Of a DNA stretch of 64,000 nt, positions 4,463-56,882 are shown piece after piece (positions within the stretch are counted from its first letter, which is position 1; the number at the start of each line of letters is the position of its first letter). The position numbers and the translations under genes were made by a program. The notes beneath the pieces were generated by a model, which ran no database searches, was not told the DNA's origin, and saw only the letters and a program-made list of their open reading frames with translations. Origin of the DNA: Patescibacteria group bacterium (GTDB taxonomy: Bacteria > Patescibacteriota > Patescibacteriia > JACRDY01); NCBI GenBank assembly GCA_041650515.1, contig JBAZLA010000001.1, positions 18,710 to 82,709 of the forward strand. Direction: 5' to 3'.

Positions 4463-5098
4463 TTACTTTTTACCAGCTGCTGGTTTAGTCACTCGAATCT
4501 CTAATAAACCGTTCCGAGCGCCTGGTAGTGCTCCCTGGATATAAAGTAAATTCTTAGTCTGATCAATATCAATAATCTTTAAATTTTTGATTGTTACCCG
4601 CTCATCACCCATATGGCCGGCCATTCTTTTGCCTTTAAAAACCCGCTGGGGGCCAGTATCGCCGATTGAGCCAGGCATCCGGTTTTGGTCCTTATGACCA
4701 TGAGTTTTGTTCTGACAATGGAAGTGGTGACGCTTAACTACACCCTGGAAACCTTTACCCTTTGAAGTGCCAACCACCTGAACTACGTCGCCTTGGCTAA
4801 AATTAGCCACTGTTACCTTATCGCCGCGCTTAATTTCGGCTAATTTACTATCATTTTCCGCTCTAAATTCGCATAAATAAGCCAAATTCCCCAAATCTTT
4901 TGTATGACCAGCTTCTGACTTGGTCGGGTGTTTTTTAACTCCAAAACCAAGCTGAACGGCTTCATAAGTATCTTTCTCTTTGGTCCGAACTTGGGTAACC
5001 ACACATGGCCCAGCCAAAACCGCGGTCACCGGAGTAACGGTGCCGTCAGGGCTAAACTTCTGGGTCATGTTCACTTTTTTACCCAAAATCGCTTGCAT
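4463..5098 (-). CDS. rplC: 50S ribosomal protein L3
   Basis: Translation MQAILGKKVNMTQKF...FKGKRMAGHMG. The supplied ORF starts 11 codons earlier (5131); the conserved start is at 5098. Confidence 0.9.
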   Translation of the reverse strand: MQAILGKKVNMTQKFSPDGTVTPVTAVLAGPCVVTQVRTKEKDTYEAVQLGFGVKKHPTKSEAGHTKDLGNLAYLCEFRAENDSKLAEIKRGDKVTVANFSQGDVVQVVGTSKGKGFQGVVKRHHFHCQNKTHGHKDQNRMPGSIGDTGPQRVFKGKRMAGHMGDERVTIKNLKIIDIDQTKNLLYIQGALPGARNGLLEIRVTKPAAGKK

Positions 5099-5640
5099 AA
5101 GGCAAAGAAAAAAGCTAGTAACCTCTATCAATAATTAATTACCAATAAGGGTTACTAGCCTTAGCTTTTAAGGATATTTTTGGCTAAATTTAGCTAAATA
5201 TTTTCCTTTCTTGCCTCTAAAGACTAGCGTAGATTATCGCCTCGTAAGACTAACGTCACGGGGGAATTTGCTCCACTAATCCTCACTGGTAGCCACAGTA
5301 TAAAGCAAGATTAAAATGCTGTCAAGGAATAGTCCACAGTCCACAGTCCAAAACGGCTTTAATAAAGAAAAAACCGCCCCAAAGCGGATTTGTTATTGGC
5401 TCTGCCGACAGCCATCAGCTAACAGCCATCAGCTTATCAAAAACTCCACCATCGGCAGGCTGAAGATGATCTGGCTAAAAGCTAAGTGGGTGTCCGCAGT
5501 ACAGGCGCCACGGCGCTAGACAATGTGAGACTCCCATTACCAGATGATGACCCAGAACATAATCAACCCAAATGTCCGATAGTGAAGCTCGTCTTTATTA
5601 TACTCCTGCTGGTAAAAGGACGTCAACTTTGTTTAGTACA

Positions 5641-6222
5641 CAGTGCACAGTACCTAGTACACAGTTTAGCTAGATTTAATTATTTTTTTAGAACGATCTC
5701 ATCGTCGGGATATTAAGATACGATTGCTAATTAATAAACTAAAAACTATGACCACAAAAAGCTATCGTGACCTAATCGTTTGGCAAAAAAGTCTAAATTT
5801 GGTTTTAGCCACCTATGAATTGACTAAATGTTTCCCCAAAGAAGAACTTTTCGGGCTAACCACCCAAATCCGTCGGGCGGCTATTTCTATTCCTTCAAAC
5901 ATTGCCGAAGGCTACGGCCGCCGGTCTAACGGTGATTTTCGACGATTTCTCTTAATTGCCAAAGGATCCGCCCTAGAATTAGAGACTCAACTGCTAATAG
6001 CCAAGGAGTTAAAACTAACAGAAGACAACAAATTCACCAAAGCTGAATCATTACTAATTGAGGTGGCAAAATTACTTTACTGTTTTGTAAAAAAAATAAA
6101 ATAGGGATAAATACACAGTAACTAACTTCCCGAGTCAATTACAACCCCAGAGTTCCCTAGATAGACTTGGGAAGTTTAGTTTTTTCTAAAGTACTAGGTA
6201 CTGGGTACTAGGTACTAGTCAA
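5641..6222. mobile_element. Inverted-repeat cassette carrying four-helix-bundle gene 1; arms are GTACTAG/GTGCACA-type heptamer arrays
   Basis: Left arm cagtgcacagtacctagtacacag is the reverse complement of the right-arm type gtactaggtactgggtactaggtactag. Confidence 0.6.
5748..6104 (+). CDS. Four-helix-bundle protein of the 23S rRNA intervening-sequence family (TIGR02436-like, Avd-like fold)
   Basis: Translation MTTKSYRDLIVWQKS...IPSNIAEGYGRRS...ALELETQLLIAKEL is a hallmark of the family. ATG at 5748; the ORF finder begins at a TTG at 5724. Confidence 0.8.
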   Translation: MTTKSYRDLIVWQKSLNLVLATYELTKCFPKEELFGLTTQIRRAAISIPSNIAEGYGRRSNGDFRRFLLIAKGSALELETQLLIAKELKLTEDNKFTKAESLLIEVAKLLYCFVKKIK

Positions 6223-6291
6223 TAAAAAAAGGCGGGTGTTTAGTCCGCCAGGAAACGAAACGAATCGCCTCTCAGAAAATAATACTGCGGT

Positions 6292-6606
6292 TTAGGTCCA
6301 AAGCCGCTGGACCTGCCGCTTCAATGCACAGAGCCTCACATCCGGCTGACTACGCCGGAGGTGGTGAATGACACCAATCACGGTGCAAATCGCCGCTTGC
6401 CCGCGACCCGATTGAACCAAAGTCATAAAGGTCCGATGATCAACTTGCTGACCATTAACTTCGACTGGTTCTATTAACCTGCCCTCGATCAGAGCCACTG
6501 TGCCCGGATCGATCTCGATGGCTGGAAGACGACGGTGGCGCTGTTCCCCCGATCCTCTTAAAAGTTGAGAAATCGTGGTGCCACCTTGGGTGCCTGCGTC
6601 GGTCAT
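6292..6606 (-). CDS. Hypothetical 104-aa protein in a GC-rich segment, with a perfect SD (AAGGAGGGG) 6 nt before the ATG; immediately downstream of tRNA-Thr
   Basis: The only protein-like frame in this GC-rich stretch. It has a strong RBS, unlike native genes, and no recognisable family. Confidence 0.45.
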   Translation of the reverse strand: MTDAGTQGGTTISQLLRGSGEQRHRRLPAIEIDPGTVALIEGRLIEPVEVNGQQVDHRTFMTLVQSGRGQAAICTVIGVIHHLRRSQPDVRLCALKRQVQRLWT

Positions 6607-6686
6607 GTGCCCCTCCTTGTGTGCGGCTCATCAAGCCACACGTTTGTTGAACCATTTACTCCCTTGGGGGAGCTACCTACGATCAT

Positions 6687-6758
6687 AGACCCTGACAGGA
6701 TTCGAACCTGTGCGCAACCAGTACCAGTGGCTTGCTCTACCAACTGAGCTACAGGGTC
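6687..6758 (-). tRNA. tRNA-Thr, anticodon GGU
   Basis: Reverse complement folds as a cloverleaf. Acceptor GACCCUG/CAGGGUC, D-arm GCUC-AGUUGGUA-GAGC, anticodon arm AGCCA-CUGGUAC-UGGUU, T-arm ACAGG-UUCGAAU-CCUGU. 72 nt; no encoded CCA. Confidence 0.85.
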
Positions 6759-6762
6759 GTGA

Positions 6763-6869
6763 TAGTACATAGTACGTAGTACTTAGTACTTAGTACATGG
6801 AGTTTGAGACCAACCATTGTTGGGATATGACTCACTATGTACTGTGTACTAAGCACTACGTACTATTTA
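6763..6869. repeat. Long imperfect hairpin whose arms are tandem TAGTAC(N) heptamers (about 35-nt arms, about 33-nt loop), abutting the 5' side of tRNA-Thr
   Basis: Arm 1 is atagtacatagtacgtagtacttagtacttagtacat; the reverse complement of arm 2 is aaatagtacgtagtgcttagtacacagtacatagt. Confidence 0.8.
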
Positions 6870-6871
6870 TC

Positions 6872-6899
6872 AAAAAAACCGCCCTTTCTTTGGCGGCTT
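6872..6899 (-). terminator. Rho-independent terminator downstream of ndk
   Basis: On the minus strand: GCCGCC-AAAGAAAG-GGCGGU followed by UUUUUUU. Confidence 0.6.
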
Positions 6900-7128
6900 A
6901 GCTGTTGATTCTTGGAAACTTTTCCAAAATCTATCCTTGCTGTTTGCTAACCGCCATGCTGGTCTTCTTGTCAACCAAAACCAAAAAGTCCCAGCGAATA
7001 TCAGGGGTCTTAATGATCTGATTGTTCAAGATGGCAGTTAACATATTATTAATTCTATTGTAACAAACTCAAAATATCTGTCAATACAATTTTTACTATG
7101 TCGATTCGATCCCAACTATTCAACGGAC

Positions 7129-7719: not shown

Positions 7720-7794
7720 ATTTTTGCCAAAAATTAATTTTAAGTTGGCTCTATTATAGCAAAACTAGCCAAAGAGTCAAAATTAAAACCCAAT

Positions 7795-8060
7795 CCCATA
7801 ATTAATACGGTCGGGGGCTGGGGCGGATGCGGCGCGGAGCCGAAGTCTCCGTCTGGTCGATACTGTCCAGGAGACAAGGCGGGTAGACCGGACTGAGGAT
7901 GAACAATGAATCGCGCCTCAAGAGCCCCAGGACTTTTTTGCTACTTTTTTAGTCATAAAAAAGTAGATCATTACGGAGACGAGACAGGGATTCCTCCGCT
8001 TCACCCCGCCTGCGGCGGGGTCCGGTCGGAATGACAATTAAACAACCGATAACCCGCCGG
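7795..8060. repeat. GC-rich structured intergenic repeat, copy A of five
   Basis: Shares gggggctggggcg, aacaatgaatcgcgcct, a ctacttttttagtcataaaaaagtag hairpin, and a ggtcggaatgacaatt end with the copies at 10320, 38515, 42100 and 58888. Confidence 0.7.
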
Positions 8061-8103
8061 ATAGTTTAGATTCTTTTAATCCTCTCCATTTTACACTTAA
8101 ACC

Positions 8104-18467: not shown

Positions 18468-19790
18468 TTATTTGATTTCACAAACAGTATACAAATATTT
18501 ACCGCTCGGCGTTGGATCAATCTGATCAACAAAATTCCATTTAGTCCGGCAGTCAGCACCCATAAATAATTTAATTTTTTCTTCAATTCCTCGCATCTGG
18601 CTAGAGTTAGCCTCACCAACTATCTTTAACTCTACTAAATTATATTCTTTCTGGATTAATTGAAATTTTTTGATCCAATCTCTAAAAAATAACTGCTGAA
18701 TGATAAAATGAGTATGTTTTAATCCACCACTTTGAGTCTTAAAATAACCTAGGGTCCTACCAACAACATTATGTAAATTTAAATAAGATTTAGTCCGACT
18801 AAAATTATAATAAACCCCCGGTTGCGCTACGTCGCCCACTTCATATCGGATCAACGGCATCGAAAAATTATCCAAACAAGTAACAACTACTCTGCCCATA
18901 CCATCTCTCAAATCACTAATTTCAACTAGATGACGCCAGAAAAAAACTTGTAAATCAGAGTCGATTTTATCCTGAAAAGCAACTGCCCCTAATTCACGTG
19001 AACCGTACTGATTATAAACTGGACAATTGAAAGCCAGCTCAATTGACGATTTTATCTCCGGGTACAATGGACCAATACTAGTGACAATATATTTAGGAGA
19101 ATATAACTTGATATTATTAGCTGAAACAAATTTAGAAAATTCATATGTCGAGTCAACATAAGTCCAATAACTGACCGGTTTGAAGTTATTATTTAGCTCA
19201 ACTAATTCTTTCATTTTGTCAGAAGAAAAATTATAAGAATTTAAGAACCTCCTATTGTAAAGCCAATTTATGCAACGATCTCTAAGAGCTAAATTACCCT
19301 TGATAATATCCCGATCCGAGCCCCAAAGTTTAATTTCCTTGTCGCCTAAAGATTTACCTAATATTTCATTAAAATGAATCTTGGTAGCAATATTACTCTC
19401 ATCATAATAATGATCCTGTAAAAATTTTACCGGCTCACCAGTCGAACCGCCAGAAGTGTTTTGATAAAATTTTCTCTTTTGGTAGTCATCGGAATATAGA
19501 TTAGCTCCTTCTTGACGGATAATATCCTTAGTCAAAAGCGGTATCTGATTAAAGTTATCCAAATTAACCTGACCATTATCAACTACGCCGCTTTCAGACA
19601 AAATCTTATGGTAATAAGGAACGTGGTTATAGGCGTGAAGTAAAATTTCCTTTAATTTATCTTGCTGGTATTGCTGTTGTTTTGCCCCAGACATTTTTTC
19701 GAAACCATGCAGTAATCTCAAATTGGCCGGAATCTTGCTCCCGCTTAAATAAAACAAAAAGTAAATTATCGGCCTACGCCAGTTAAACAT
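18468..19790 (-). CDS. CapK/PaaK-family adenylate-forming enzyme (phenylacetate-CoA-ligase-like), paralog 1
   Basis: TSGGSTGEPVKF P-loop-like motif and PaaK-like length. Confidence 0.7.
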   Translation of the reverse strand: MFNWRRPIIYFLFYLSGSKIPANLRLLHGFEKMSGAKQQQYQQDKLKEILLHAYNHVPYYHKILSESGVVDNGQVNLDNFNQIPLLTKDIIRQEGANLYSDDYQKRKFYQNTSGGSTGEPVKFLQDHYYDESNIATKIHFNEILGKSLGDKEIKLWGSDRDIIKGNLALRDRCINWLYNRRFLNSYNFSSDKMKELVELNNNFKPVSYWTYVDSTYEFSKFVSANNIKLYSPKYIVTSIGPLYPEIKSSIELAFNCPVYNQYGSRELGAVAFQDKIDSDLQVFFWRHLVEISDLRDGMGRVVVTCLDNFSMPLIRYEVGDVAQPGVYYNFSRTKSYLNLHNVVGRTLGYFKTQSGGLKHTHFIIQQLFFRDWIKKFQLIQKEYNLVELKIVGEANSSQMRGIEEKIKLFMGADCRTKWNFVDQIDPTPSGKYLYTVCEIK

Positions 19791-19801
19791 AAAATAAAAA
19801 T

Positions 19802-21097
19802 TTATTTGACTTCGCTATAAGTGTAAAAATATTTCCCACTCTTTGAAGGGTTAATCTGATCAACAAAATTAAAATCCACACAACAATTCTGGCCAAAAAG
19901 AACTTTAATTTTATCCTTTATATTATCAATATCTTGATTGTTCGGTTCGCTAGCCAATACCACGTTGCAAATAATATAACTGCGATCTTTTTGAATCATT
20001 TGAAACTTTTTGATCCAATCTTTAAACCAAAACTGCCTAACTAAAATCCGAGCATTAATTATTTGCCCGCTCTCTGTTTTGAAATGAGAAATGGTTCGAC
20101 CAGTGACATCATCAAAAACTTTGATTAAATTATGATTATTAAAATGGCTAGCGGTGGGCGGAATAGCCGTATCACCAATTTTATATCTGATAATGGGCAT
20201 AGTAAAATTAACTAATAAAGTTACGACTACCTCGCCATCAATAACTTCTAAATAATGCAACGCTGGAAAGCCGTATAGTCCTTTATTTTGCTCAAGCTCA
20301 ATAGCGACACCGCCAACCTCCATTGAACCATATTGATTATAAACTGGGCAATGAAAAGCTTCTTGTGCTACCTGCCGAATCTCGGGGAAAAGGGTGCCGG
20401 CCGTGGAGATAATGAATTTAGGGGAATAAACTGACAAATTATTTTTTTTAATATAATTGGAAATAACATCTAAAGACTCAGCATAAGCCCACATTGAAAC
20501 CGGCTTAACTTTATTGATTGTCGCAATAAAACTAGCTAATTTTTGGTCGTCATATCTAAAAAAATTGAGAATCGTTCGATTGTAAAGAAAATTGATTATT
20601 CTCTCTTTCCAACTTAAAGAATTACGAAAAATATCGCGTTCCGATCCCCAAATTATTATTTCTGGTTCGCCAATTTTTTTGCCATAAATTTCGTGGTAAA
20701 AAATTTTTAAGGCAATACCCACTAACTCCCAATACTCTTGATCCTGTAAAAATTTTACCGGCTCACCAGTCGAACCGCCAGAAGTGTTTTGATAAAATTT
20801 TCTCTTTTGGTAGTCATCGGAATATAAGTTAGCTCCTTCTTGACGGATAATATCCTTAGTCAAAAGCGGTATCCGATTAAAGTTATCCAAATTAACCTGA
20901 CCATTATCAACTACGCCGCTTTCAGACAAAATCTTATGGTAATAAGGAACGTGGTTATAGGCGTGAAGTAAAATTTCCTCCAGTGCCGATCTTTGATCGA
21001 CCAAAGACATCCGACGCAATCTTTTTAAATTATCTGGAACTTTACTGCCAGTAATATACCAGAGGAAATAAATTATTATCTTACGCCAATTAAACAT
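19802..21097 (-). CDS. CapK/PaaK-family adenylate-forming enzyme, tandem paralog 2
   Basis: Shares a roughly 239-bp block, about 99% identical, with paralog 1 (19451-19689 against 20740-20978). Confidence 0.7.
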   Translation of the reverse strand: MFNWRKIIIYFLWYITGSKVPDNLKRLRRMSLVDQRSALEEILLHAYNHVPYYHKILSESGVVDNGQVNLDNFNRIPLLTKDIIRQEGANLYSDDYQKRKFYQNTSGGSTGEPVKFLQDQEYWELVGIALKIFYHEIYGKKIGEPEIIIWGSERDIFRNSLSWKERIINFLYNRTILNFFRYDDQKLASFIATINKVKPVSMWAYAESLDVISNYIKKNNLSVYSPKFIISTAGTLFPEIRQVAQEAFHCPVYNQYGSMEVGGVAIELEQNKGLYGFPALHYLEVIDGEVVVTLLVNFTMPIIRYKIGDTAIPPTASHFNNHNLIKVFDDVTGRTISHFKTESGQIINARILVRQFWFKDWIKKFQMIQKDRSYIICNVVLASEPNNQDIDNIKDKIKVLFGQNCCVDFNFVDQINPSKSGKYFYTYSEVK

Positions 21098-27388: not shown

Positions 27389-27483
27389 GTAGTATGCAGT
27401 ATGCGGTATACAGTATGCAAGGGTTGAGTGCCACAGTTAGTGAAAAATAAGCCCTGCATACTGCATACTGACCCCTGCATACT
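27389..27483. repeat. Hairpin element with AGTATGC heptamer arms, between ahcY and pfkB
   Basis: gtatgcagtatgcggtatacagtatgcaagggtt ... aagccctgcatactgcatactgacccctgcatac. Confidence 0.8.
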
Positions 27484-28430: not shown

Positions 28431-28480
28431 GATGTCCGCTGTTCGCTAATGGCTCGCGAAATGCGAACCGCGAACCGCGG
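28431..28480. repeat. Short hairpin with GCGAACCGCGGACAGC-type arms (CGAACCG heptamer family)
   Basis: tgtccgctgttcgc...gcgaaccgcgaaccgcggacagc. Confidence 0.7.
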
Positions 28481-29186: not shown

Positions 29187-32100
29187 TATTTTACTACTAT
29201 ATTAATCAACCGCCCGGGAACAAAAATCACTTTAACTATTTCTTTACCAGTTAAATAACTTTTTACTTTTGTATCCACTAAGACTAACTCTTTAGCCTCG
29301 GTTTCGCTAATATCCGCTTTGACTTGAATATTGGTTCGCATTTTGCCGTTAATCTGGATCACCAAAGTGATTTCTTCTTCCTTAACTAACTCCGGATCAT
29401 ACTTGGGCCAGCTCTGGCAAAAAATACTTTTTTGGTGACCAAGCGTTTGCCACAACTCTTCGGCTAAGTGGGGCGAAAACGGTGCCAAAATTTTTAAAAA
29501 CAATTCCAAATTTTCCTGACTGACTTCTTTGGCTTCTTGAAAACCATTGACCAAAATCATCATGGCCGAAATCGCGGTATTATAGCGCATGTTTTCAATA
29601 TCCTCAGTAACTTTTTTGATTGTTTGATGAACTAATTTGTCGCCTTGTACCTTGCTACTTGTTACTTTTTCTTGAAGCAACCAAACTTTATCCAAAAACC
29701 GCCGCACACCATTAATCCCTTTGGTACTCCAGGGCTTGGTGTCTTCAAGCGGCCCCATAAACATTTCATAGAGTCGCATGCTGTCCGCGCCAAAATCGCG
29801 AACCACATCATCGGGGTTAATCACATTACCACGCGATTTGGACATTTTTTGGCCGTCTTCGCCCAAGATCATGCCTTGGTTGCGAAGTTTGAGAAACGGT
29901 TCAGCAAAATTAATATAACCCAGATCATACAAAACTTTGGTAAAAAACCGCGCATACATCAAATGCAGTACCGCATGTTCCGCTCCGCCAACATAGAGAT
30001 CAACTGGTAGCCATTTATTAATTTCTTTCTGGCTAGCAAACTCTTTTTTGTTCTCTGGATCAGTGTAACGGAAATAATACCAAGATGAACAAACAAAAGT
30101 ATCCATAGTATCGGATTCGCGTTTGGCGGGAGCACCACAAACCGGACATTTAACATTGTGAAATTTTTTAGAATTGACCAACGGCGACTCACCAGTTGGT
30201 TTAAAATCAACATCATCTGGCAATAAAACTGGTAAATCTTTCTCTGGCACCGGGACTAAACCCGAATTAGAGCCTAAAGAAAATTCTTCTAAAATTTCTG
30301 GGAAAGACAACATTCCCACCCGGCGATTAGAATGACCACGGTTATTAAATATTCTCACCCGGGCGCCCAAAGGCTGATAATCTTTTTCGACCGCTAACGG
30401 AATATAAGGATCGTTGTCTGAAAGATAAATAACAATTTCTTTGGCTAGTTTTTTTACTCGGACTAAATCAATTTTAGCTTGATTAAAATGCTTGGCCGCC
30501 TCAATACTATTCACCTCGGCACCGGCCGTTCGCATATTGCTCCAATTCTCCTCACTCTGAGACGGACCGGTCGGCGCGACTAAAATTAATTTTTCTATTG
30601 GTAAACCAGTTACCTGAATATATTGGCAAACAGCCGGGGCGCTCAGGCTGTGAGCGACGATAAAAATTTTATCTTCTTTTTTAAAATTGAGACTCTGCAG
30701 CGCCGCCACCCACTCGGCAATTGTCGGCACGCTAGCATTAGGCAAAATTGGAATTAAAACTTCATAGCCGCTATTTTCTAGTTGCTCTTTGAGCCAAGGA
30801 AACCAATTATCGTTAGCGTGAGCATTAAGACCGTGGGTTAATAAAACCTTAGGTTTTTTCTGAGCACAATGATCACAATAAATCATCGGGATGGGCGCGC
30901 CCCAATAGCGCTGGCGCGATACCAGCCAATCGCGAAGTTTGTACTGCGTTTTTAACTGACCACCGACTTTTTGCGTAATTTTTTTCTTGGCTTCTTCACT
31001 GGTTAAACCATCAAACTCGCCGGAATTAATCATGGTGCCAGTGCCAACCCAACACTTATAAGCTAAATCGCTACTTAAATGGCCATAAGCGCCCGGGCTG
31101 GCCATGCCAGATTCTATCGGACTGGCTGCCATTAAACTTTCTGGTTTAATCACTTCAATTATCGGCAAACTAAATTTTTTGGCGAACTCATAGTCTCGTT
31201 CATCGTGCGCCGGCACCGCCATGATTGCTCCAGTGCCATAGCCAGTCAAGACATAATCAGCCACAAAAATCGGTATTTCTTTATTGGTTGCCGGATTGAT
31301 GGCTCTAATACCCTTTAATTCCACACCGGTCTTGGCTTTAGCTAAATCGGTTCTTTCGATTTCATTCTTCTTTTGGGCCAACTTAATGTATTGCTCAACT
31401 TCTTCCCAATTTTTAATTGCCAATTTTAAATTATTAATCAAACCATGCTCTGGCGCCAGCACCATATAAGTTACGCCAAAAAGTGTATCCGGCCGCGTGG
31501 TAAAAACTTTAATTTTTACTGGTTCGCGAACCGCGGACAGCGAACCGCGGACAGCGAATTCTAACTCTGCTCCCTCACTCCGGCCGATCCAATTTTTTTG
31601 CATCAGCTTAATCGGCTCGGGCCAATCAATTGTATCCAAATCATTGAGCAGTCTATCAGCATACTGAGTCACTTTAAAAAACCACTGCTCTAGGTCTTTT
31701 TGCACCACTTCGTTGTGACAACGTTCGCATTGACCGGCGACCACCTGCTCATTAGCTAGTACTGTCTGACAAGAATTACACCAATTAACTTTGGCTTTCT
31801 TTTTGTAAGCTAAACCGTTTTTATAGAGCAACAAAAAAAACCACTGCGTCCATTTGTAATATGCTGGATCAGAAGTTTTAATTTCGCGTGACCAGTCATA
31901 ACTCAGGCCCAGCGACTGGATCTGGCGTCGAAAAGTTTCAACACTTTTGTCAGTCGTTATCTGTGGATGAACTTTTTGCTTGATGGCAAAATTTTCCGCT
32001 GGTAGGCCAAAAGCATCCCAACCCATCGGGTGTAAGACATCATAACCATTGAGTCGCAGATAACGGGAATAAATATCCGTCGCGGTGTAACCCTCAGGAT

Positions 32101-33302: not shown

Positions 33303-33845
33303 TTATTCGGCTTTTTTGCTCAGGGTGATCCTCTTACACCCCTTGATGGCCGTGAGCCGATGGCGGCGTGGGATGGTCTTGGTGACCTTGTTTAGGACAG
33401 CCTCAAACTGCCCGGTGTCCCTGCCAACGCAACGGATAAAGGCCAGGTCATGATTCGCGACGAGTGTTCCAGCATCAACATCCAACACTGCCGCGAAAGT
33501 CAACACCGCCTCAAGCGGTATATCCTGCCAATCAGTAGATTCTCTCTCAATTGGAGAATCAGCTTCAAATTCCTCGGTGATGGTGGCGATCAAATCACCT
33601 CGAAGCACTGCCCAAAAAACAAAACCATCACCCAGTTTAGCTTCGATGCCAGCGTCGTCGAGAAGACGACAAAAATTTTCCACCTCTCGGAAGGTCAAAC
33701 TGCCGTACTTGTAACCCACTGACTTCACCGACGGCAAACCTTCCTGATCAGCCAAAAAGGCTAAAATCCTACGGCCGTGAGCTTTTGCCACTCTCGCCAG
33801 CTCTTCCAAATCCGCCAAACGGTAGTCTCTCCGATACTCTCTCAT
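33303..33845 (-). CDS. Hypothetical 180-aa protein; GC-rich, strong SD (AAAGGAGGA), own terminator
   Basis: Composition is clearly different from its neighbours. No family recognised. Confidence 0.45.
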   Translation of the reverse strand: MREYRRDYRLADLEELARVAKAHGRRILAFLADQEGLPSVKSVGYKYGSLTFREVENFCRLLDDAGIEAKLGDGFVFWAVLRGDLIATITEEFEADSPIERESTDWQDIPLEAVLTFAAVLDVDAGTLVANHDLAFIRCVGRDTGQFEAVLNKVTKTIPRRHRLTAIKGCKRITLSKKAE

Positions 33846-34308: not shown

Positions 34309-35634
34309 CTAATAGCCTCTAATTTTCATTGCTACCGCCACCCGCTTGATGCCCAAAATAAAAGCAGCGGTGCGCAGATCAATTTTCTTTTCTTTGGCGA
34401 TTGATTCAACACTAATAAAAGCTTTATCCATGACTACTTTTAGCCGTTTAGCCACTTCTTCTTCACTCCAATTTTCCCGATGCAGGTTTTGCAACCACTC
34501 AAAATAAGAAACCGTCACCCCGCCCGCATTAACCAAAACATCGGGGACAACAATTATCCCCCGCTTGTTTAATTTAACATCCGCTTCGGGCGTGGTTGGG
34601 CCATTGGCAATTTCCAAAATTACTTTAGCTTTGATCTTGCCGGCGTTTTGGGCCGTAATCTGATTTTCCAACGCCGCCGGGATCAAAATATCACACGGCA
34701 TTTCTAAAAGCTTGGCGCTAGCCATATGTTTATGTTCCACTTCATCACAAACCGAACCAGTGCAGTAATAACCATCAACCAAGCCTTTTTGTTTTTTAAT
34801 CTTCATTGTGCTTTCTGGGTGGAAAGAATCACCATTGGGTGAGTAGATACCGCCTTTAGAATCAGCTAAGCCAACTACACGGTAGCCAGCTCGATTAACC
34901 AGCTGAGCAATATGATAACCGGCATTACCAAAACCTTGGATAATCACTCGCAAACCACCTTTTGACTTTCGTACGGGCAAGTCGCGACTTGCCCCTGCTT
35001 TCATTTTCTTAACCACGTTTTCTAAAACATAGAACGCACCCTGAGCTGTCGCCGTATCGCGACCAAGCGACCCGCCGATTTCTACCGGTTTGCCGGTCAC
35101 AACGGCTGGTACTGGATAACCTTTAATTTTGGAGAACTCATCCATGATCCAAGCCATAATCTGCGGATTAGTATAAACATCGGGCGCCGGCACATCTTTA
35201 AGCGGGCCAATATATTCCTGAATCGCCTGAACATAGCCTCGAGTCATCCGTTCCAGCTCGCCAACGGACATTTTTTTGGGATCAACTTTGATCCCGCCTT
35301 TACCGCCGCCAAAGGGGATATCCACCACGGCGCATTTGACCATCATCCAAAAAGCCAAGGCCTTAACCTCATTAATATCCGATTGCGGATAATAACGGAT
35401 GCCACCCTTAAACGGACCACGAGCATCATTATACTGCACCCGATAGCCTTCAAAATTCTTGATCTGGCCATTATCCATCTTAACTGGCACAGTAAAATGT
35501 AACGCTCGCTTGGGTGAACGAAGTTTATCCAAAATCTCCGGATCAAGATCAAGATATTTGGCAGCCAAGTCTAGTTGTTTTAAAGCGTTGGTAAATGGGT
35601 TGGCAGTTCGCGGTTCGCGGTTCGCGGTTCGCAT
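34309..35634 (-). CDS. gdhA: Glutamate dehydrogenase
   Basis: Lys-Gly active-site region KGGIRY...GGGKGG. The first 12 codons, starting at the ATG at 35632-35634, lie within the (GCGAACC)n repeat and encode RTANREPRTANP. Confidence 0.9.
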   Translation of the reverse strand: MRTANREPRTANPFTNALKQLDLAAKYLDLDPEILDKLRSPKRALHFTVPVKMDNGQIKNFEGYRVQYNDARGPFKGGIRYYPQSDINEVKALAFWMMVKCAVVDIPFGGGKGGIKVDPKKMSVGELERMTRGYVQAIQEYIGPLKDVPAPDVYTNPQIMAWIMDEFSKIKGYPVPAVVTGKPVEIGGSLGRDTATAQGAFYVLENVVKKMKAGASRDLPVRKSKGGLRVIIQGFGNAGYHIAQLVNRAGYRVVGLADSKGGIYSPNGDSFHPESTMKIKKQKGLVDGYYCTGSVCDEVEHKHMASAKLLEMPCDILIPAALENQITAQNAGKIKAKVILEIANGPTTPEADVKLNKRGIIVVPDVLVNAGGVTVSYFEWLQNLHRENWSEEEVAKRLKVVMDKAFISVESIAKEKKIDLRTAAFILGIKRVAVAMKIRGY

Positions 35635-36120
35635 ATACAAAGTTTAGAAAATTTTAATATTGAATATTTTATACTAGTTTTATTAACTAATTAGCAAATA
35701 CAACTTTATGATGATTAAATCATACAAAGACCTACTCGTCTGGCAGGTAGGAATTGAGCTAGTAATAGCTACCTATGAGCTAACAGAGCAATTCCCGAAA
35801 AAAGAACAATTTGGACTAACCTCGCAGATTAGAAGAGCCTCAATCTCTATCCCATCTAATGTCGCCGAGGGTTATCAACGTAAAACTGATGGGGAACTTT
35901 TACGTTTCTTATTGATTGCTCTCGGTTCGGCCTCTGAACTAGAAACTCAACTTTTTTTAGCCAAAAAATTGAAAATGACATCCGAGGAATACTTTCTAAG
36001 AATAGATAATTTGTTAACACGAGTACTCCAGCTTACCAACTCTTTTATCAATAAACTACGCAAGGATACCGGGCGAACAGCGAACCGCGGCCAGCGAACC
36101 GCGGCCAGCGAACCGCAACA
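35595..36120. mobile_element. Inverted-repeat cassette carrying four-helix-bundle gene 2; left arm (GCGGTTC)x3-4, right arm (CAGCGAACCGCGGC)x3
   Basis: The flanks are reverse-complementary heptamer arrays. The cargo gene is antisense to both neighbours. Confidence 0.65.
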
Positions 36121-37338: not shown

Positions 37339-37432
37339 AAGTATGCGGCATACAGTATTTAGCATGCAGACGTCGGATACCACCGTTCCTAAAAAATGAT
37401 CCCTACATACTGCATACCGCATACTGTATACT
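37339..37432. repeat. Hairpin element with AGTATGC heptamer arms, between the aminotransferase and trxB
   Basis: agtatgcggcatacagtat...tacatactgcataccgcatactgtatac. Confidence 0.8.
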
Positions 37433-41246: not shown

Positions 41247-41945
41247 ATGAGAACGAATATGTTTATACTTATCAATAAACCCGCCGGTTGGACATCGCAT
41301 GACGTGATTGGCCGGCTGCGCCGGATTACTGGCGAAAAACGCATTGGCCACGCCGGCACGCTTGACCCCTTTGCCACCGGTCTTTTGATTGTGGCCATTA
41401 GTCGCGAATCAACCAAACAAATCGATCAATTTGTAAAACTAAACAAAGAATATCTAGCCACAATTAAACTCGGCGCGACTACTGATACTTATGATAAAAC
41501 TGGAAAGATACAGAAAAGCAAAGAAGCAATAAAACAAGAAAACAAAAATATTAAAAAGGCTTTAGAATCGTTCATTGGCCCCCAGTTGCAGATCCCGCCA
41601 ATGTTTAGCGCCAAAAAAGTAAACGGCAAAAAACTCTACGAATTGGCCCGACGAGGCAAGGAAATTGAGAGAAAACCGAGCCAGATTAATATTACTGATT
41701 TAGAAATTATTGACTATCACTGGCCGGATTTGAAAATTAAAGTTAACTGCTCCTCTGGCACCTATATCCGCAGCTTGGCCCATGATCTGGGAATTAAGCT
41801 GGGTTGCGGCGGGTATTTAGAAGAATTAACTCGAACTAAAATTGGTAATTTTGATTTAAAAAATGCAATTACTCTAGATAAATTAACACCGGAAAACTGG
41901 CAAACGCTAGTTCATAGTACAGAGTACACAGTACCCAGTATCTAA
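41247..41945 (+). CDS. truB: tRNA pseudouridine(55) synthase
   Basis: HAGTLDP catalytic Asp motif. The last roughly 10 codons overlap an AGTACAN heptamer array. Confidence 0.9.
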
Positions 41946-42026
41946 ATTCCCTCTTTTTTATTATAATACCCCATTCCTTAAGAAAACTGGGGGTATTAGT
42001 ATCTATGTATTATGTACTCTGTATGG
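41913..42026. repeat. Heptamer-arm hairpin (AGTACAG/AGTACAC units) spanning the truB 3' end
   Basis: catagtacagagtacacagtacccagtatc ... gtattagtatctatgtattatgtactctgtatgg. Confidence 0.6.
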
Positions 42027-42030
42027 AGTT

Positions 42031-42062
42031 TACCCTGAGCAAAGCGAAGGGTACTATTTTTA
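42031..42062 (+). terminator. Rho-independent terminator of truB
   Basis: taccct-gagcaaagcga-agggta followed by ctattttt. Confidence 0.6.
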
Positions 42063-42099
42063 TAAATGAAGAAGGACCTTTCGCGTGGTTAGCTAGGGT

Positions 42100-42235
42100 C
42101 CTTCGTTAATGGCATTTTGGCCGTGAACGCTGGCCCGCCTAGACTCGCGTCTGGCGAGGCTGGGAAGCGTTTCTGGCACTGGACTAAGCTCAGCAAGCGG
42201 GGGCTGAACTCAGACCGAGTAGGTGCCGCTGTGAT
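42100..42235. repeat. GC-rich structured repeat, copy D
   Basis: ggcccgcctagactcgcgtctggcgaggctgg is shared with copies B and C. Confidence 0.6.
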
Positions 42236-43089
42236 CAGGGCACCGACGGCGGAACAATGGAAAAGCCGATGGTCCAGTACGTTCTCTGATAGTACTGTTT
42301 GTCGGGTTCCTGTTCCGTGGTTGGCATGTCCTCGTTGAAACCGCGGAGACGGCGATAGGCCTCGCGGTTGTCCGGATCGGTGTAATGGGCGACGTCAACG
42401 AGTGCGCCGCCCCACAACCGTAGCCTCCAGCCCGTGCTGGGATAAGCCAGGTTGAACCCGATGGTCGGACCGACGAGAAATTTCCACCCCTCGTCGTCCG
42501 GAAGAAACTTGCAGGCGGTCTCCTCGTCGATCACGTCGTGATCGACGCGTTCGAGGATGGCGCGCTCGCTGGCCGTTTGGTAGTGGTACCATCTGGCCAT
42601 GACGCCGAGGAAGGCAATGCGGTGGATCTCGTACCCCGAGCGGGCTTCGAGCAGGATCCGCTCCAAGGGCTCGTTGCCGTAATCGGGCATGTAGTGCCCG
42701 TCCACGGCGAATTCAAACCCATGAGTGGTCACGAAGACTCCCGGATGGAGATCAAACGTGACTGCCATGGCGCCAGCGCCGCCCACCCCGCCGAAGAGGT
42801 GGACATTGAGGATTCCGCTGAACCCGCGATAGACCATTCCCAGGCCACCTTGGGTCAACGGATATGCCCCATCCAGGTCGAAGTACATCGGATCATCCCA
42901 GTTATGAGAGATGACGACCCGACCTTCGAGGGCCAACGCGACGTTGTGCGGCCCATCCTTGGACAGGTAATACATCGCGTCAATGTCCGCGATGATCGGG
43001 CCGGCCTTCTCGCTCTCGGCGTGGGCGATGGTGGCGGTGAACAGGATGGACAACAGGACGATACAGACGATACAAATGATGCGTTTCAT
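42235..43089 (-). CDS. Secreted beta-rich protein, possibly outer-membrane-barrel-like, with a signal peptide; GC-rich, strong SD (AAGGAG)
   Basis: MKRIICIVCIVLLSILFTATIAHA signal peptide. The mature part is Gly/Tyr/Trp/Asp-rich with alternating hydrophobicity. Estimated at about 60% GC against about 40% in the flanks, by eye. Confidence 0.5.
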   Translation of the reverse strand: MKRIICIVCIVLLSILFTATIAHAESEKAGPIIADIDAMYYLSKDGPHNVALALEGRVVISHNWDDPMYFDLDGAYPLTQGGLGMVYRGFSGILNVHLFGGVGGAGAMAVTFDLHPGVFVTTHGFEFAVDGHYMPDYGNEPLERILLEARSGYEIHRIAFLGVMARWYHYQTASERAILERVDHDVIDEETACKFLPDDEGWKFLVGPTIGFNLAYPSTGWRLRLWGGALVDVAHYTDPDNREAYRRLRGFNEDMPTTEQEPDKQYYQRTYWTIGFSIVPPSVP

Positions 43090-43099
43090 GGGTTGCTCC

Positions 43100-43363
43100 T
43101 TATCGCTTTTCGGTGATAGTGTCGTCAGATTCGATCTTTCTTACCCGGACTATGACTAACCGGGTAATAGCCATAACGGCCAGGCTGATGCCCAACCAGA
43201 TTGCCGCGTCGGCCCGCTGCCCGCTGATAAAAATCAGTCGCAGCAGGTGCTGGAACGCGCACGGGAACATCAGAACGAATATGACCCAACAAATTTGGGC
43301 AGTGATTCTCAAAAACATGACTTGCCTCCGTTGATTCGTGTGATTCGTGTTATCTTTGAACAA
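43100..43363 (-). CDS. Small (87-aa) two-TM membrane protein, co-oriented with the secreted-protein gene; GGAGG SD
   Basis: ORF with an SD 6 nt upstream, in a GC-rich context. Confidence 0.4.
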   Translation of the reverse strand: MFKDNTNHTNQRRQVMFLRITAQICWVIFVLMFPCAFQHLLRLIFISGQRADAAIWLGISLAVMAITRLVIVRVRKIESDDTITEKR

Positions 43364-43573
43364 ACCTGACGGTTTGTCCGTTTTTTCCGCTATATGTAAG
43401 CAGATTCAAAATCTGCCTATTGGAAGGTACAATCACCCTCGCTTTAGCCTGAAATGGCTAATTTGAGTGTGACAATATATAATAGCATAGTTTGAGATAA
43501 AAGTCAATGAAAACCACCAAAAAACAGCTTAATTTAGCTATTTTTTGGGTTTTGACAGCCTAAAATAGCAACG

Positions 43574-43687
43574 GTGCGGGCCCAATCCCGGACACCCCCT
43601 CCTAACCTCCCCCTTTGCAGGGGGAGGGCCGGTCTCCTCCCCTGCTAAGGGGAGGAACAAGGTGGGGTGTCCGGGATTGGGCCTGCA
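43574..43687. repeat. Palindromic multi-hairpin GC element (25-nt outer inverted repeat enclosing cctcccccTTTGCAgggggagg and ctcctccccTGCTAAggggaggaa hairpins)
   Basis: Outer arms gtgcgggcccaatcccggacacccc / ggggtgtccgggattgggcctgcac. Related to the element at 56758-56878. Confidence 0.75.
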
Positions 43688-43702
43688 CCGACGTTAGCAT
43701 TT

Positions 43703-43726: not shown

Positions 43727-43757
43727 CTACTGTGTACTGGGTACTCGGTACTATGGA
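43727..43757. repeat. Tandem heptamer array (GTACTGN)x4 between the purH stop and its terminator
   Basis: ctactgtgtactgggtactcggtactatggac. Confidence 0.7.
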
Positions 43758-50377: not shown

Positions 50378-50474
50378 TAGTATGCAGGGATAAGTATGTA
50401 GTATGCAGGGGTTAATCCCCACGAATGGCGGGGCCTAAACCCTGCATACTACATACTATATACTAGATACTGAC
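50378..50474. repeat. Hairpin element with AGTATGC heptamer arms, between purD and purF
   Basis: agtatgcagggataagtatgtagtatgcaggggtt ... aaccctgcatactacatactatatactagatact. Confidence 0.8.
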
Positions 50475-54431: not shown

Positions 54432-55409
54432 TTATACCTTACCGAAGTACTTCCGTAAATTCTGCTCTAGCCGCTGATTGGTATCTAAACCGGCGATTGG
54501 AAATTCAAAATTTTGGCCGGTTAATTTTTCATAAATATCAATATAGCGATAAGATAATTCAATCACTAAATCGTCCGGCGCTTCGGGCAAAACTTCGTCT
54601 TTGTACGGATCACAGTGCTCGCGAAACCACAACCGTAAAAATTCTTTATCAAAATATTCTGGCTCTTGGCCGGCCTTAACCCGTTCTTCGTAGCTATTTA
54701 AAACCCACCAACGCGATGAATCCGGCGTATGAATCTCGTCAACCAAAATTATCTGGCCATCAGACGTTTTACCAAACTCATATTTAGTATCCACCAAAAT
54801 TAAACCAGCTTTAGCCGCTAATTCCTGCCCGCGCGCAAAAAGCTGACGAGTGTAATCTGCCGCTTTATCCCAATCTTCTTGGCTCATTAGACCTTCGCTG
54901 ATAATTTCGGCTGACGAAATTTTGCGATCATGCTCATCTGATTTAGTCGTCGGTGTAATCAGCGGCTGATCAAATTTTTGATTTTTCTTTAAACCATCAG
55001 GCAAAACATTGCCACAAAATTGCCGTTCACCTTTTCCATAGGCCGTCCAAACTGCCGTGCTGGTCACACCGGTTAAATAACCGCGAATTACAAACTCCAC
55101 GGGAAAAATTTGGCACTTTTTACCCACTGTGACGTTGGGATCAGGCACAGCAAAAACGTGATTTGGCACAATATCTCTAGTTTGTTCGAACCACCAGGCT
55201 GAGGTTAAATTTAAAACTTGGCCTTTAAATGGCACCGAAGCCAAAATCCGATCAAAAGCTGACTGCCGATCGGTGGTAACTAGAACTAATTTATCCCCCA
55301 AATCATAAGTATCGCGCACTTTGCCGCGACGTTTACTACCTAGCCACGACAAATCTGTCTCAGTTAGACAATTTTTTAGACTGGCTTTGATTAGTTCCTT
55401 CTTATTCAT
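54432..55409 (-). CDS. purC: SAICAR synthetase (long form)
   Basis: GKVRDTYDLGDKLVLVTTDRQSAFD motif. Confidence 0.9.
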   Translation of the reverse strand: MNKKELIKASLKNCLTETDLSWLGSKRRGKVRDTYDLGDKLVLVTTDRQSAFDRILASVPFKGQVLNLTSAWWFEQTRDIVPNHVFAVPDPNVTVGKKCQIFPVEFVIRGYLTGVTSTAVWTAYGKGERQFCGNVLPDGLKKNQKFDQPLITPTTKSDEHDRKISSAEIISEGLMSQEDWDKAADYTRQLFARGQELAAKAGLILVDTKYEFGKTSDGQIILVDEIHTPDSSRWWVLNSYEERVKAGQEPEYFDKEFLRLWFREHCDPYKDEVLPEAPDDLVIELSYRYIDIYEKLTGQNFEFPIAGLDTNQRLEQNLRKYFGKV

Positions 55410-55421
55410 AATTCGTAATTC

Positions 55422-56750
55422 TTAATTCGTAATTATTTTCTGTATTTCCTGTGAATAAGGATTAGCTAAAATATTTTTTTGAATTACTTCTTGAATCTTA
55501 TTTTCTGGACCAGTTAATTGCCATAGGGTGCGCTTGGTGACCCTACCCACACCTTTAATACCCAGCCGCTCGGTCAAGGTCCCGAGTTTACTTTGGCCAA
55601 TCACATCATCTTTATATTTAACTAAATAATTGGCCGCCTGATTCACTATTTCGGCTTGATCTATATCTGACCAACTACCATCTTTATTAAATTTTTTAAG
55701 TCCAGCGGGAAATTTAACGTAAGCAATTTCCTTACTGGTATTAAGCAGTTCATTTGATAAAATAATTTCCTTGATGAGCTGTCGACTGTTGGCTGTTGGC
55801 TGTTGGCTAAGCTCAACTTCCCAGTGACTTTTCTTTTTAATATCAACATCGGTATAACCTAGACGTTTAACCGCGCTATCCAGCGTCCGCGCCTCATTAT
55901 CAGTAATAATTAAATCCACAAAAATCTCCACCGAGTTCGGCGCCGGTTGATAAACCGACAACTCACTAACCTCTTTAGGCTGGTATTCTAACTTTTGACT
56001 TTTGACTTTTGACTTTTGACTTATATATTCCCGCAAGCTCTCAAAAATACACTGCCCGTCAGCCGTCCGCTCGGGGTGCGGCATAATCGCCATGACATTA
56101 CCCACGGGATTGCAAACAGCGGCTAAATTGTAAATCGCGCCATTGGGGTTAGTGGGAAAATCTTCTTTAATCTGACCCTGCTCGTCACAGTAGCGCCAAA
56201 CAGTCTGACCGTTCTGAATCAATTCTTGGAGTAAACTTTCTTCCATCATAAACCGACCTTCACCATGAGCCACCGGTAAACGAAAACGATGTTCTTTTTC
56301 TATATTATAGTTAAAAGCACAGCGACCCTTGGGCACGTCATTCTTAATATTAACCCAGGTGTTATAGAAACCAGTTCCCAGCACTTTGCCGTCTTGGATC
56401 CGTTTATTAACTGCCAGTGCCGCGGCTAATTTCTCGCCGGTCACTCCTGGCACTAAGCCAGATTCCAGAACAATCTGAGCACCATTACAAATCCCTAATA
56501 CTGGCTTACCCTTAACGGCTTGCGACTTAATCACCGCCATCAATGGATCAAGCGAGGCAATCATTCCCGACCGCACCCGGTCTTCATAACTAAAACCGCC
56601 GGGGATGATATAACCGTCGTAATTATCTAGTTTGCTATAATCATCATTCCAACGAAAAAACTCACCCTGCATGCCCGCAGCGTTAACCGCCCGCCGAGTT
56701 TCATACTCGCAGTTTAGACCGGGAAATTGAATTATGGCAATTTTGATCAT
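55422..56750 (-). CDS. purQ: FGAM synthase PurQ (glutaminase) fused to C-terminal PurS-like domain(s)
   Basis: N-terminus IKIAIIQFPGLNCEY with the GICNGAQ Cys motif. C-terminus VEIFVDLIITDNEARTLDSAVKRLGY...ANPYSQE is PurS-like. The linker is encoded by a (CTTTTGA)x4 array. The true start is the ATG at 56750; the supplied ORF runs on into the palindromic element. Confidence 0.85.
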   Translation of the reverse strand: MIKIAIIQFPGLNCEYETRRAVNAAGMQGEFFRWNDDYSKLDNYDGYIIPGGFSYEDRVRSGMIASLDPLMAVIKSQAVKGKPVLGICNGAQIVLESGLVPGVTGEKLAAALAVNKRIQDGKVLGTGFYNTWVNIKNDVPKGRCAFNYNIEKEHRFRLPVAHGEGRFMMEESLLQELIQNGQTVWRYCDEQGQIKEDFPTNPNGAIYNLAAVCNPVGNVMAIMPHPERTADGQCIFESLREYISQKSKVKSQKLEYQPKEVSELSVYQPAPNSVEIFVDLIITDNEARTLDSAVKRLGYTDVDIKKKSHWEVELSQQPTANSRQLIKEIILSNELLNTSKEIAYVKFPAGLKKFNKDGSWSDIDQAEIVNQAANYLVKYKDDVIGQSKLGTLTERLGIKGVGRVTKRTLWQLTGPENKIQEVIQKNILANPYSQEIQKIITN

Positions 56751-56757
56751 ATCTTTA

Positions 56758-56878
56758 GTCCCTCCCCTTTCTAAGGGGAGGGCAGGTGGGGTTGGCCGAG
56801 GTTTCGGTGGTAGTTCTAAGATAATTACCACCTTAGTCTCCGGCAACCTCCCCTAGCCCCTCCTTGGAAAGGAGGGGA
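56758..56878. repeat. Palindromic multi-hairpin GC element, second copy of the 43574 family
   Basis: ccctccccTTTCTAaggggaggg and ccccTCCTTGGAAAggagggg hairpins, and shared aaggggaggNcaRggtggggt. Confidence 0.7.
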
Positions 56879-56882
56879 ATAT

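Follow-up and report, generated by a model that had tools for sequence, protein, structure and literature searches.

The minus strand of a Patescibacteria metagenome-assembled genome carries a threonine tRNA gene, tRNA-Thr, followed by an open reading frame (ORF) of 104 amino acids (aa), referred to here as ORF104, and a terminator-like hairpin. All features of this unit lie on the minus strand of a 64-kb stretch, the whole of the DNA that was analysed, which is called the window. The best explanation of positions 6686 to 6224 (-) is a protein-coding gene, small and confined to this lineage, on a segment of about 460 bp that is rich in guanine and cytosine (GC), probably foreign, and located between tRNA-Thr and the terminator. 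The chance that this explanation is correct is considered about even. The GC-rich segment is foreign-looking in composition. ORF104 alone is unremarkable, but ORF104 together with the Shine-Dalgarno (SD) site in front of it is not.

The ORF104 segment and its signals

ORF104 runs from an ATG at 6606 to a TAA stop at 6294-6292 and is entered in GenBank as hypothetical protein WC480_00145. An initial annotation, made from the letters of the DNA, had placed a frame of 104 aa at 6292-6606; the frame and its position were confirmed, and the strand, which had been left out, is the minus strand. Frame translation places two in-frame stop codons, TGA TGA, 8 codons 5' of the ATG, so that this ATG is the earliest possible start. 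The tRNA-Thr(GGU) gene, at 6758 to 6687 (-), does not encode its CCA and is the sole tRNA of the window according to both ARAGORN and Rfam (RF00005, 65.5 bits). The tRNA and the frame share a strand, and 80 nt separate the 3' end of tRNA-Thr from the ATG, which places the frame directly 3' of a tRNA, as had been proposed. The terminator-like element (6249 to 6224, -) begins 43 nt past the ORF104 stop and has a stem of five G/C pairs (GGCGG/CCGCC) that closes a 9-nt loop, with a run of seven T residues (T7) behind it. The terminator scan permits loops of up to 8 nt, so this element was found by sequence and fold instead.

Two hairpins were predicted in the spacer between tRNA-Thr and ORF104. 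GCUCCC-CCAA-GGGAGU at 6673 to 6658 (-) is present in both the minimum-free-energy and the centroid fold. The second hairpin at 6641 to 6621 (-), GUGUGGCU...AGCCGCAC, has 8-9 bp, ends 2 nt before the SD site and holds the in-frame TGA TGA stops in its loop. Neither is followed by a T-run, and a scan of the sequence found no promoter-like site between tRNA-Thr and ORF104. The order on the minus strand is tRNA-Thr, two hairpins, SD, ATG, stop, and hairpin with T7. ORF104 has the layout of a protein-coding gene, with an ATG, a ribosome-binding site, a 104-codon frame and a terminator.

This arrangement is consistent with the earlier proposal that tRNA-Thr and ORF104 are co-transcribed. The thrU-tyrU-glyT-thrT-tufB operon of E. 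coli is a unit in which tRNAs and an mRNA are transcribed together. As in that operon, a frame comes behind tRNA-Thr in the same orientation, the stretch between the two is free of promoter-like sites and T-run hairpins, and the frame is followed by a terminator. The two differ in that there is one tRNA here and four in E. coli, and in that the downstream gene is a 104-aa orphan and not tuf (EF-Tu tblastn E >1). The tufB operon is a known transcription unit, whereas that of tRNA-Thr and ORF104 is predicted from sequence. A single transcript would carry both genes, as the lack of a promoter-like or terminator-like site between them and the hairpin with T7 after them suggest. As expected from general tRNA biology, RNase P and a 3'-processing nuclease would free tRNA-Thr from it. 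The leftover mRNA would start near the hairpins at 6673-6658 and 6641-6621, the latter of which may shield its 5' end. The ATG would be translated via AAGGAGGGG, yielding a basic protein of 104 aa (12 Arg, 1 Lys, and 9 Asp plus Glu).

The GC content is 55.6% in ORF104, 54.4% in 6230-6690 and 41.2% in the window, and the windowed calculation upholds the earlier impression that the frame is GC-richer than its surroundings. The 300-nt GC peak at ORF104 is 0.563, which falls between the 95th (0.497) and the 99th (0.59) percentiles. The stretch is one of the four main GC-rich islands in the window (peak of at least 0.547 per 300 nt).

The SD-type sequence AAGGAGGGG at 6618 to 6610 (-) is followed by CAC and then by the ATG, and the GGAGG core ends 4 nt ahead of the ATG. 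A canonical SD had been claimed with a spacer of four nucleotides; the site is present and the spacer is 3 nt. An SD core of at least 5 nt at a usable distance was found before 4 of the 52 long ORFs of the window, and the best two of these four precede GC-rich orphan genes. The remaining 48 ORFs have none, in agreement with the earlier remark that native genes mostly lack an SD. AGGAGG is under-represented in the window, with 10 occurrences against 20.6 +/- 4.5 expected from dinucleotide shuffles. A literature search on SD use in Patescibacteria returned nothing relevant. To evaluate the role of chance, the 464-nt stretch was dinucleotide-shuffled 20,000 times. GGAGG stood 4-10 nt before the longest ORF in 0.8% of the shuffles, and an ORF of at least 104 aa combined with GGAGG at this distance occurred in 0.13% (p = 0.0013). 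Six-frame codon scoring under the host codon model ranked the ORF104 frame best, and under an island codon model it tied for best with one plus-strand frame.

Because high GC and an SD occur together in a host that uses neither, the segment may have been gained from an SD-using, GC-richer donor and may not yet have drifted toward the host. The other GC-rich, SD-led orphans of the window point the same way and suggest a donor origin. Two further GC-rich islands hold such genes. The first is a 180-aa orphan at 33303-33845 (-) with a GC content of 51%, an AAGGAGG SD, its own promoter-like site, a strong terminator and a positive in-frame codon score; it is flanked by the genes for glutamate dehydrogenase and RNase HII. 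The second island contains an SD-led gene of 284 aa at 42235-43089, with a GC content at codon position 3 (GC3) of 0.78 and a signal-peptide-like N-terminus, which like the gene at 33303-33845 looks truly coding, and a 72-aa SD-led orphan ORF at 43100-43318. The products of these two ORFs had no match in Pfam, NCBIfam, PHROGs, PADLOC, phages or plasmids. The combination of an SD and high GC in an orphan is shared by ORF104, 33303-33845, 42235-43089 and 43100-43318. ORF104 resembles orphan genes on acquired atypical DNA in that it has no homologue, a GC content 14 points over that of the genome, and an SD where SDs are otherwise lacking. It differs from them in that its GC3 is not raised and no donor was identified, and its codon-position composition is nearer to random sequence than that of the genes in the other islands.

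Relatives and alternative explanations

The loci of 97 relatives, found via ndk and L3, were compared with the segment by nhmmer and blastn. None of them contained element-like DNA, and none had a tRNA upstream of rplC. The ndk relatives are 81-82% identical and belong to Kuenenbacteria and other groups; next to their ndk genes, neither a tRNA-Thr nor DNA resembling the element is present. The nearest L3 is 67% identical in the whole collection and 63% identical in the JGI metagenomes. Judged from these sequences, a single genome is in effect all that represents the lineage. A second contig with ORF104 is 100% identical, hence there are zero substitutions to analyse. In relatives, unrelated genes separate rplC from rpsJ. 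The closest of them (L095 and L099, with an L3 identity of 64%) likewise have rplC cut off from tuf-rpsJ by unrelated genes, which marks the region upstream of rplC as a variable spot in the clade. In a Kuenenbacteria locus (L004, 469-1048), a 580-nt AT-rich insert with small ORFs splits two tRNA-Ala genes that are adjacent in another relative (L002). Such an insert indicates that tRNA clusters in this group accept insertions, and it is unrelated to the ORF104 element.

Several observations weigh against a functional protein-coding gene. An ORF of at least 104 aa arose in 14% of the shuffles, so that length alone is not significant (p = 0.14). The in-frame codon score of ORF104 is about 0 bits per codon, compared with +0.15 to +0.39 in host genes. 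Its base composition is flat at the second and third codon positions, and G at position 2 reaches 0.26, compared with 0.16-0.20 in real genes of the window. Its residues (Arg 11.5%, one Lys, no Tyr and one Phe) are those expected of stop-free random DNA of 55% GC. GC at codon positions 1, 2 and 3 is 0.65, 0.47 and 0.55, and a position-3 value below that of position 1 is unusual for a gene of a GC-richer donor. An 11-mer derived from the SD, CAAGGAGGGGC, recurs at 56856-56866 as part of a hairpin between genes, in which it does not serve as an SD. The SD of ORF104 may be inert in a host that apparently does without SDs. In addition, the scan found no promoter upstream of tRNA-Thr.

The searches for relatives of the protein belong to the same side of the balance. 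A cluster search of 5.8 billion clusters matched the ORF104 product only to itself, as did an exhaustive phmmer search of 1.84 billion representatives. Among about 15 billion known proteins, no similar one was found. No match was found in Pfam, NCBIfam, PADLOC or the PDB, and PHROGs gave only a weak one (phrog_5430, E 0.045). The profile-HMM searches that the initial annotation had proposed (Pfam, NCBIfam, PHROGs and PADLOC) yielded nothing below E 0.01, and neither did the PDB. JGI metagenome contigs and IMG/VR viral contigs searched with ORF104 gave nothing, and phage and plasmid records gave nothing under E 0.3 in blastn or tblastn. The single-sequence AlphaFold2 model reached a mean predicted local distance difference test (pLDDT) score of 45.8, which is too low for a fold search and carries little weight for an orphan. 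The other five frames of the stretch had no Pfam match.

ORF104 could be a chance open frame, with the 460 bp or so being non-functional, either as acquired DNA in decay or as an extended 3' trailer of the tRNA transcript, and with the SD-like run as a coincidence or a relic. This is somewhat unlikely. The frequency of such frames among the shuffles is in its favor, together with a residue and codon-position composition as in stop-free random sequence, the lack of a homologue and the low confidence of the model (pLDDT 46). The 11-mer containing AAGGAGGGG in a non-SD hairpin elsewhere fits as well, and so does the variable junction upstream of rplC, which gathers unrelated genes in relatives. 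However, the joint probability of the ORF and its SD is 0.0013, and the ATG is both the first start after the in-frame stops and correctly spaced from the SD. Moreover, the genome is compact, spacers of such length are few, and GC-rich genes with an SD in other parts of the window have a truly coding appearance.

ORF104 would be incidental if the stretch were a new non-coding RNA with a defined structure, about 430 nt long, that is co-transcribed with tRNA-Thr and released by tRNA processing. Like GOLLD and ROOL, large bacterial RNAs that often neighbor tRNAs, and like the housekeeping RNAs RNase P RNA, tmRNA and SRP RNA, the segment is GC-rich, hundreds of nucleotides long and adjacent to a tRNA, and it ends in a terminator. 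Stable RNAs typically stand out by high GC in AT-rich genomes, the orientation is that of the tRNA, ORF104 is an orphan, and several stable hairpins were predicted. Gene-free GC-rich patches also lie nearby, at 5365-5590 and 7800-8050. A structured-RNA scan had been named in advance as the test that could overturn the reading of the segment as a small gene, and it was negative, since no covariance model besides that of tRNA matched. At the gathering thresholds of Rfam 15, which covers RNase P RNA, tmRNA, SRP RNA, 6S, GOLLD, ROOL, ribozymes and introns, only the tRNA passes. With relaxed filters and E values up to 10 over 6100-6950, the only matches inside the element were mir-678 (E 9.7) and STnc390 (E 6.8), both at chance level, and the matches to microRNA models near the element correspond to a heptamer-repeat hairpin upstream of tRNA-Thr. 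ARAGORN found no tmRNA. A hammerhead-like UGAUGAG in a hairpin loop was rejected, as it has no GAAA partner and no Rfam match.

The folding z score is -2.0 for 6686 to 6255 and -1.2 for ORF104 alone. In sliding windows it ranges from -2.1 to +0.1, with the core of the ORF near 0, and the antisense strand folds about equally (-1.9). Values between -0.3 and -4.1 were obtained for coding sequences of comparable length from the window. The element is within the range of these local coding sequences, and thermodynamics therefore gives no support for a special structure; unlike GOLLD/ROOL and the housekeeping RNAs, it folds no more strongly than ordinary mRNAs. There is no homologous DNA in the 97 relatives' loci. 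An SD exactly before the first ATG of the sole long frame would also be left unexplained. A structured RNA with an incidental frame is thus unlikely. A related proposal, that a new stable RNA of about 430 nt matures from the tRNA-Thr co-transcript in this deep lineage or that a gene arises de novo from the tRNA trailer, is regarded as a little less likely again. In these cases the SD-like run would belong to the RNA or would be what first opened the frame to translation.

The initial annotation had also pointed to the position directly 3' of a tRNA as an integration hotspot, and a remnant of a mobile element, such as an integrative island or a prophage that entered site-specifically at the 3' end of tRNA-Thr, was considered. 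The segment is like tRNA-adjacent islands and prophage remnants in its place immediately 3' of the tRNA and in its atypical composition; the SD is likewise foreign-looking, and the product weakly matches PHROG 5430, a family of unknown function (E 0.045). Unlike them, it is only about 460 bp long, and no integrase, excisionase or transposase was found within 10 kb. The 3' end of the tRNA has no second copy in the 64 kb, either as a 20-mer with 3 mismatches or as a 13-mer with 2 mismatches, and there is thus no att-type repeat of the tRNA end. Phages, IMG/VR and plasmids had no match except for one chance-level phage tblastn (E 0.3), and exact tRNA and hairpin patterns were not found in viral contigs. 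A 40-nt direct repeat (6191-6230 and 6839-6878, 75% identical) brackets the unit and contains a T-run, TTGAY and GTAC-type heptamers. Relatives of this repeat occur at 43728 and 50447, and period-7 arrays occur in many spacers. The repeats were therefore rejected as a target-site duplication and assigned to a dispersed, genome-wide family of heptamer repeats. Taken together, the hotspot reading was not borne out, and such a remnant is very improbable.

An assembly chimera or a contaminant in the contig would account for the abrupt shift in GC. A megahit contig from ENA (k141, 472 kb) and a Logan contig (8.4 kb), which was assembled independently of it, have the same sequence across both junctions. 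The agreement of two separately assembled contigs indicates that the junction is not an assembly chimera, and this explanation is barely credible.

The genes normally located between tRNA-Thr and rplC are tuf and rpsJ, and a remnant of them was looked for. The C-terminal half of EF-Tu, searched by tblastn against 6690 to 5140, gave a best E of 1.1 in a search space of 1.5 kb, and no frame matched Pfam GTP_EFTU or Ribosomal_S10. The candidate was rejected.

Neighboring genes, heptamer repeats and other loci

The neighborhood of 10 kb comprises ndk and comEC, genes for a lactamase-fold and an fn3 protein, the IVP gene and genes for ribosomal proteins. ORF104 had been described as wedged against the ribosomal-protein operon. 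This does not hold, as the IVP gene (5724-6104, on the other strand) and about 590 gene-free nt come before rplC. The gene-free region has promoter-like and terminator-like sites of its own. The rplC gene (4463-5131, -) has no rpsJ upstream; it is preceded instead by a second promoter-like sequence, TTGACA-17-TATACT (about 5325 to 5295), and a 160-nt leader. Within the gene-free region, 5365-5626 (-) carries a near-consensus promoter, TTGACG-18-TATAAT (5626 to 5597), and a hairpin with a T-run at about 5395 to 5365. The predicted RNA, about 225 nt long, has a z score of -2.8, no Rfam match, and two heptamer/14-mer arrays. The ndk and comEC genes diverge from a 385-nt spacer (7720-8103) that includes GC-rich stretches. 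These fold well on the plus strand, with z scores of -2.0 for 7795-7945, ending in T6, and -4.5 for 7940-8103, and have no Rfam match.

The product of the IVP gene has a strong match to 23S_rRNA_IVP (Pfam, 1.6e-39) and a weak match to bAvd (2.5e-4). The template of a diversity-generating retroelement (DGR) beside this gene was considered and rejected, as no reverse transcriptase was found among the Pfam-labelled genes. No repeat pair within the 64 kb involves 6230-6690, which also counts against a DGR. The IVP gene (+) encodes a four-helix bundle and is bracketed by inverted heptamer arrays at 5629-5660 and 6191-6222 (32 nt, 81% complementary). The arrangement resembles a stem-flanked intervening-sequence cassette, yet it lies outside any rRNA gene. 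The array at 6191-6222 consists of four copies of GTACTAG, adjoins the ORF104 terminator and is the inverted partner of 5629-5660 across the IVP gene.

A hairpin formed by two inverted GTAC-type heptamer arrays is located at 6766-6869, between tRNA-Thr and the ndk terminator (6899 to 6876). Its arms are 33 nt long and 88% complementary, the loop has 38 nt, and the z score is about -8. No consensus promoter for tRNA-Thr was found within 6766-6869. Period-7 tandem arrays of 3-6 copies occur in or beside many intergenic spacers of the window, at 5331-5350, 5404-5434, 5635-5665, 6191-6218, 6762-6866, 27391-27470, 28455-28479, 31525-31558, 35598-35632, 36073-36116, 37406-37432, 41916-42024, 43728-43752, 50445-50471, 55404-55434, 55778-55808, 55991-56022 and 59237-59266. 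Their units vary and include AGTACAC/GTACTAG, AGTATGC, CGCGAAC, ACTTTTG, AGTCCAC, GCTGTTG and ATTCGTA. Frequently they stand in inverted pairs, which give long hairpins next to terminators and promoters. The arrays are reminiscent of the STRR repeats of heterocystous cyanobacteria. To our knowledge, heptamer repeats of the STRR kind have not been reported from Patescibacteria, and a literature search on heptamer repeats returned nothing relevant.

The island at 42060-43510 (-) has a GC content of up to 63% and a consensus promoter of its own (43506 to 43475), and it is flanked by GTAC-type heptamer arrays. Between this promoter and the purH terminator lies a GC-rich near-palindrome (43572-43690) with 52-nt arms that are 81% complementary and with CCCCTCC/GGAGGGG runs throughout. 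The intergenic hairpin that contains the second copy of the SD-derived 11-mer is located at 56850-56880 (-), between purM and a purQ-like gene. It is a perfect 9-bp hairpin, CCCCTCCTT-TCC-AAGGAGGGG. For the ORF that follows, the listed TTG probably lies upstream of the true start, as the amidotransferase domain does not begin until residue 35. Two adjacent paralogues of 440 and 431 aa occupy 18468-21097 (-). They share 248 nt at 98% identity (19404-19651 and 20732-20979) and are 73-77% identical in the rest, which suggests that a recent gene conversion affected the 98% stretch.

Meaning for the host lineage

ORF104 alone matters little, as it is another small ORF in a candidate-phyla genome that resists annotation and is already a hypothetical protein in GenBank. 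A stable RNA or a de novo gene, if the segment proved to be one, would be a modest but genuine addition to the knowledge of Patescibacteria. Its modest value is that of a marker. The native genes here lack an SD, the few SD-led ones are all GC-rich orphans, and the combination of an SD with high GC may thus flag recently acquired DNA in lineages such as this Patescibacteria host. If the GC-rich, SD-led genes are expressed, the question would follow of how a host that is independent of SDs translates them.

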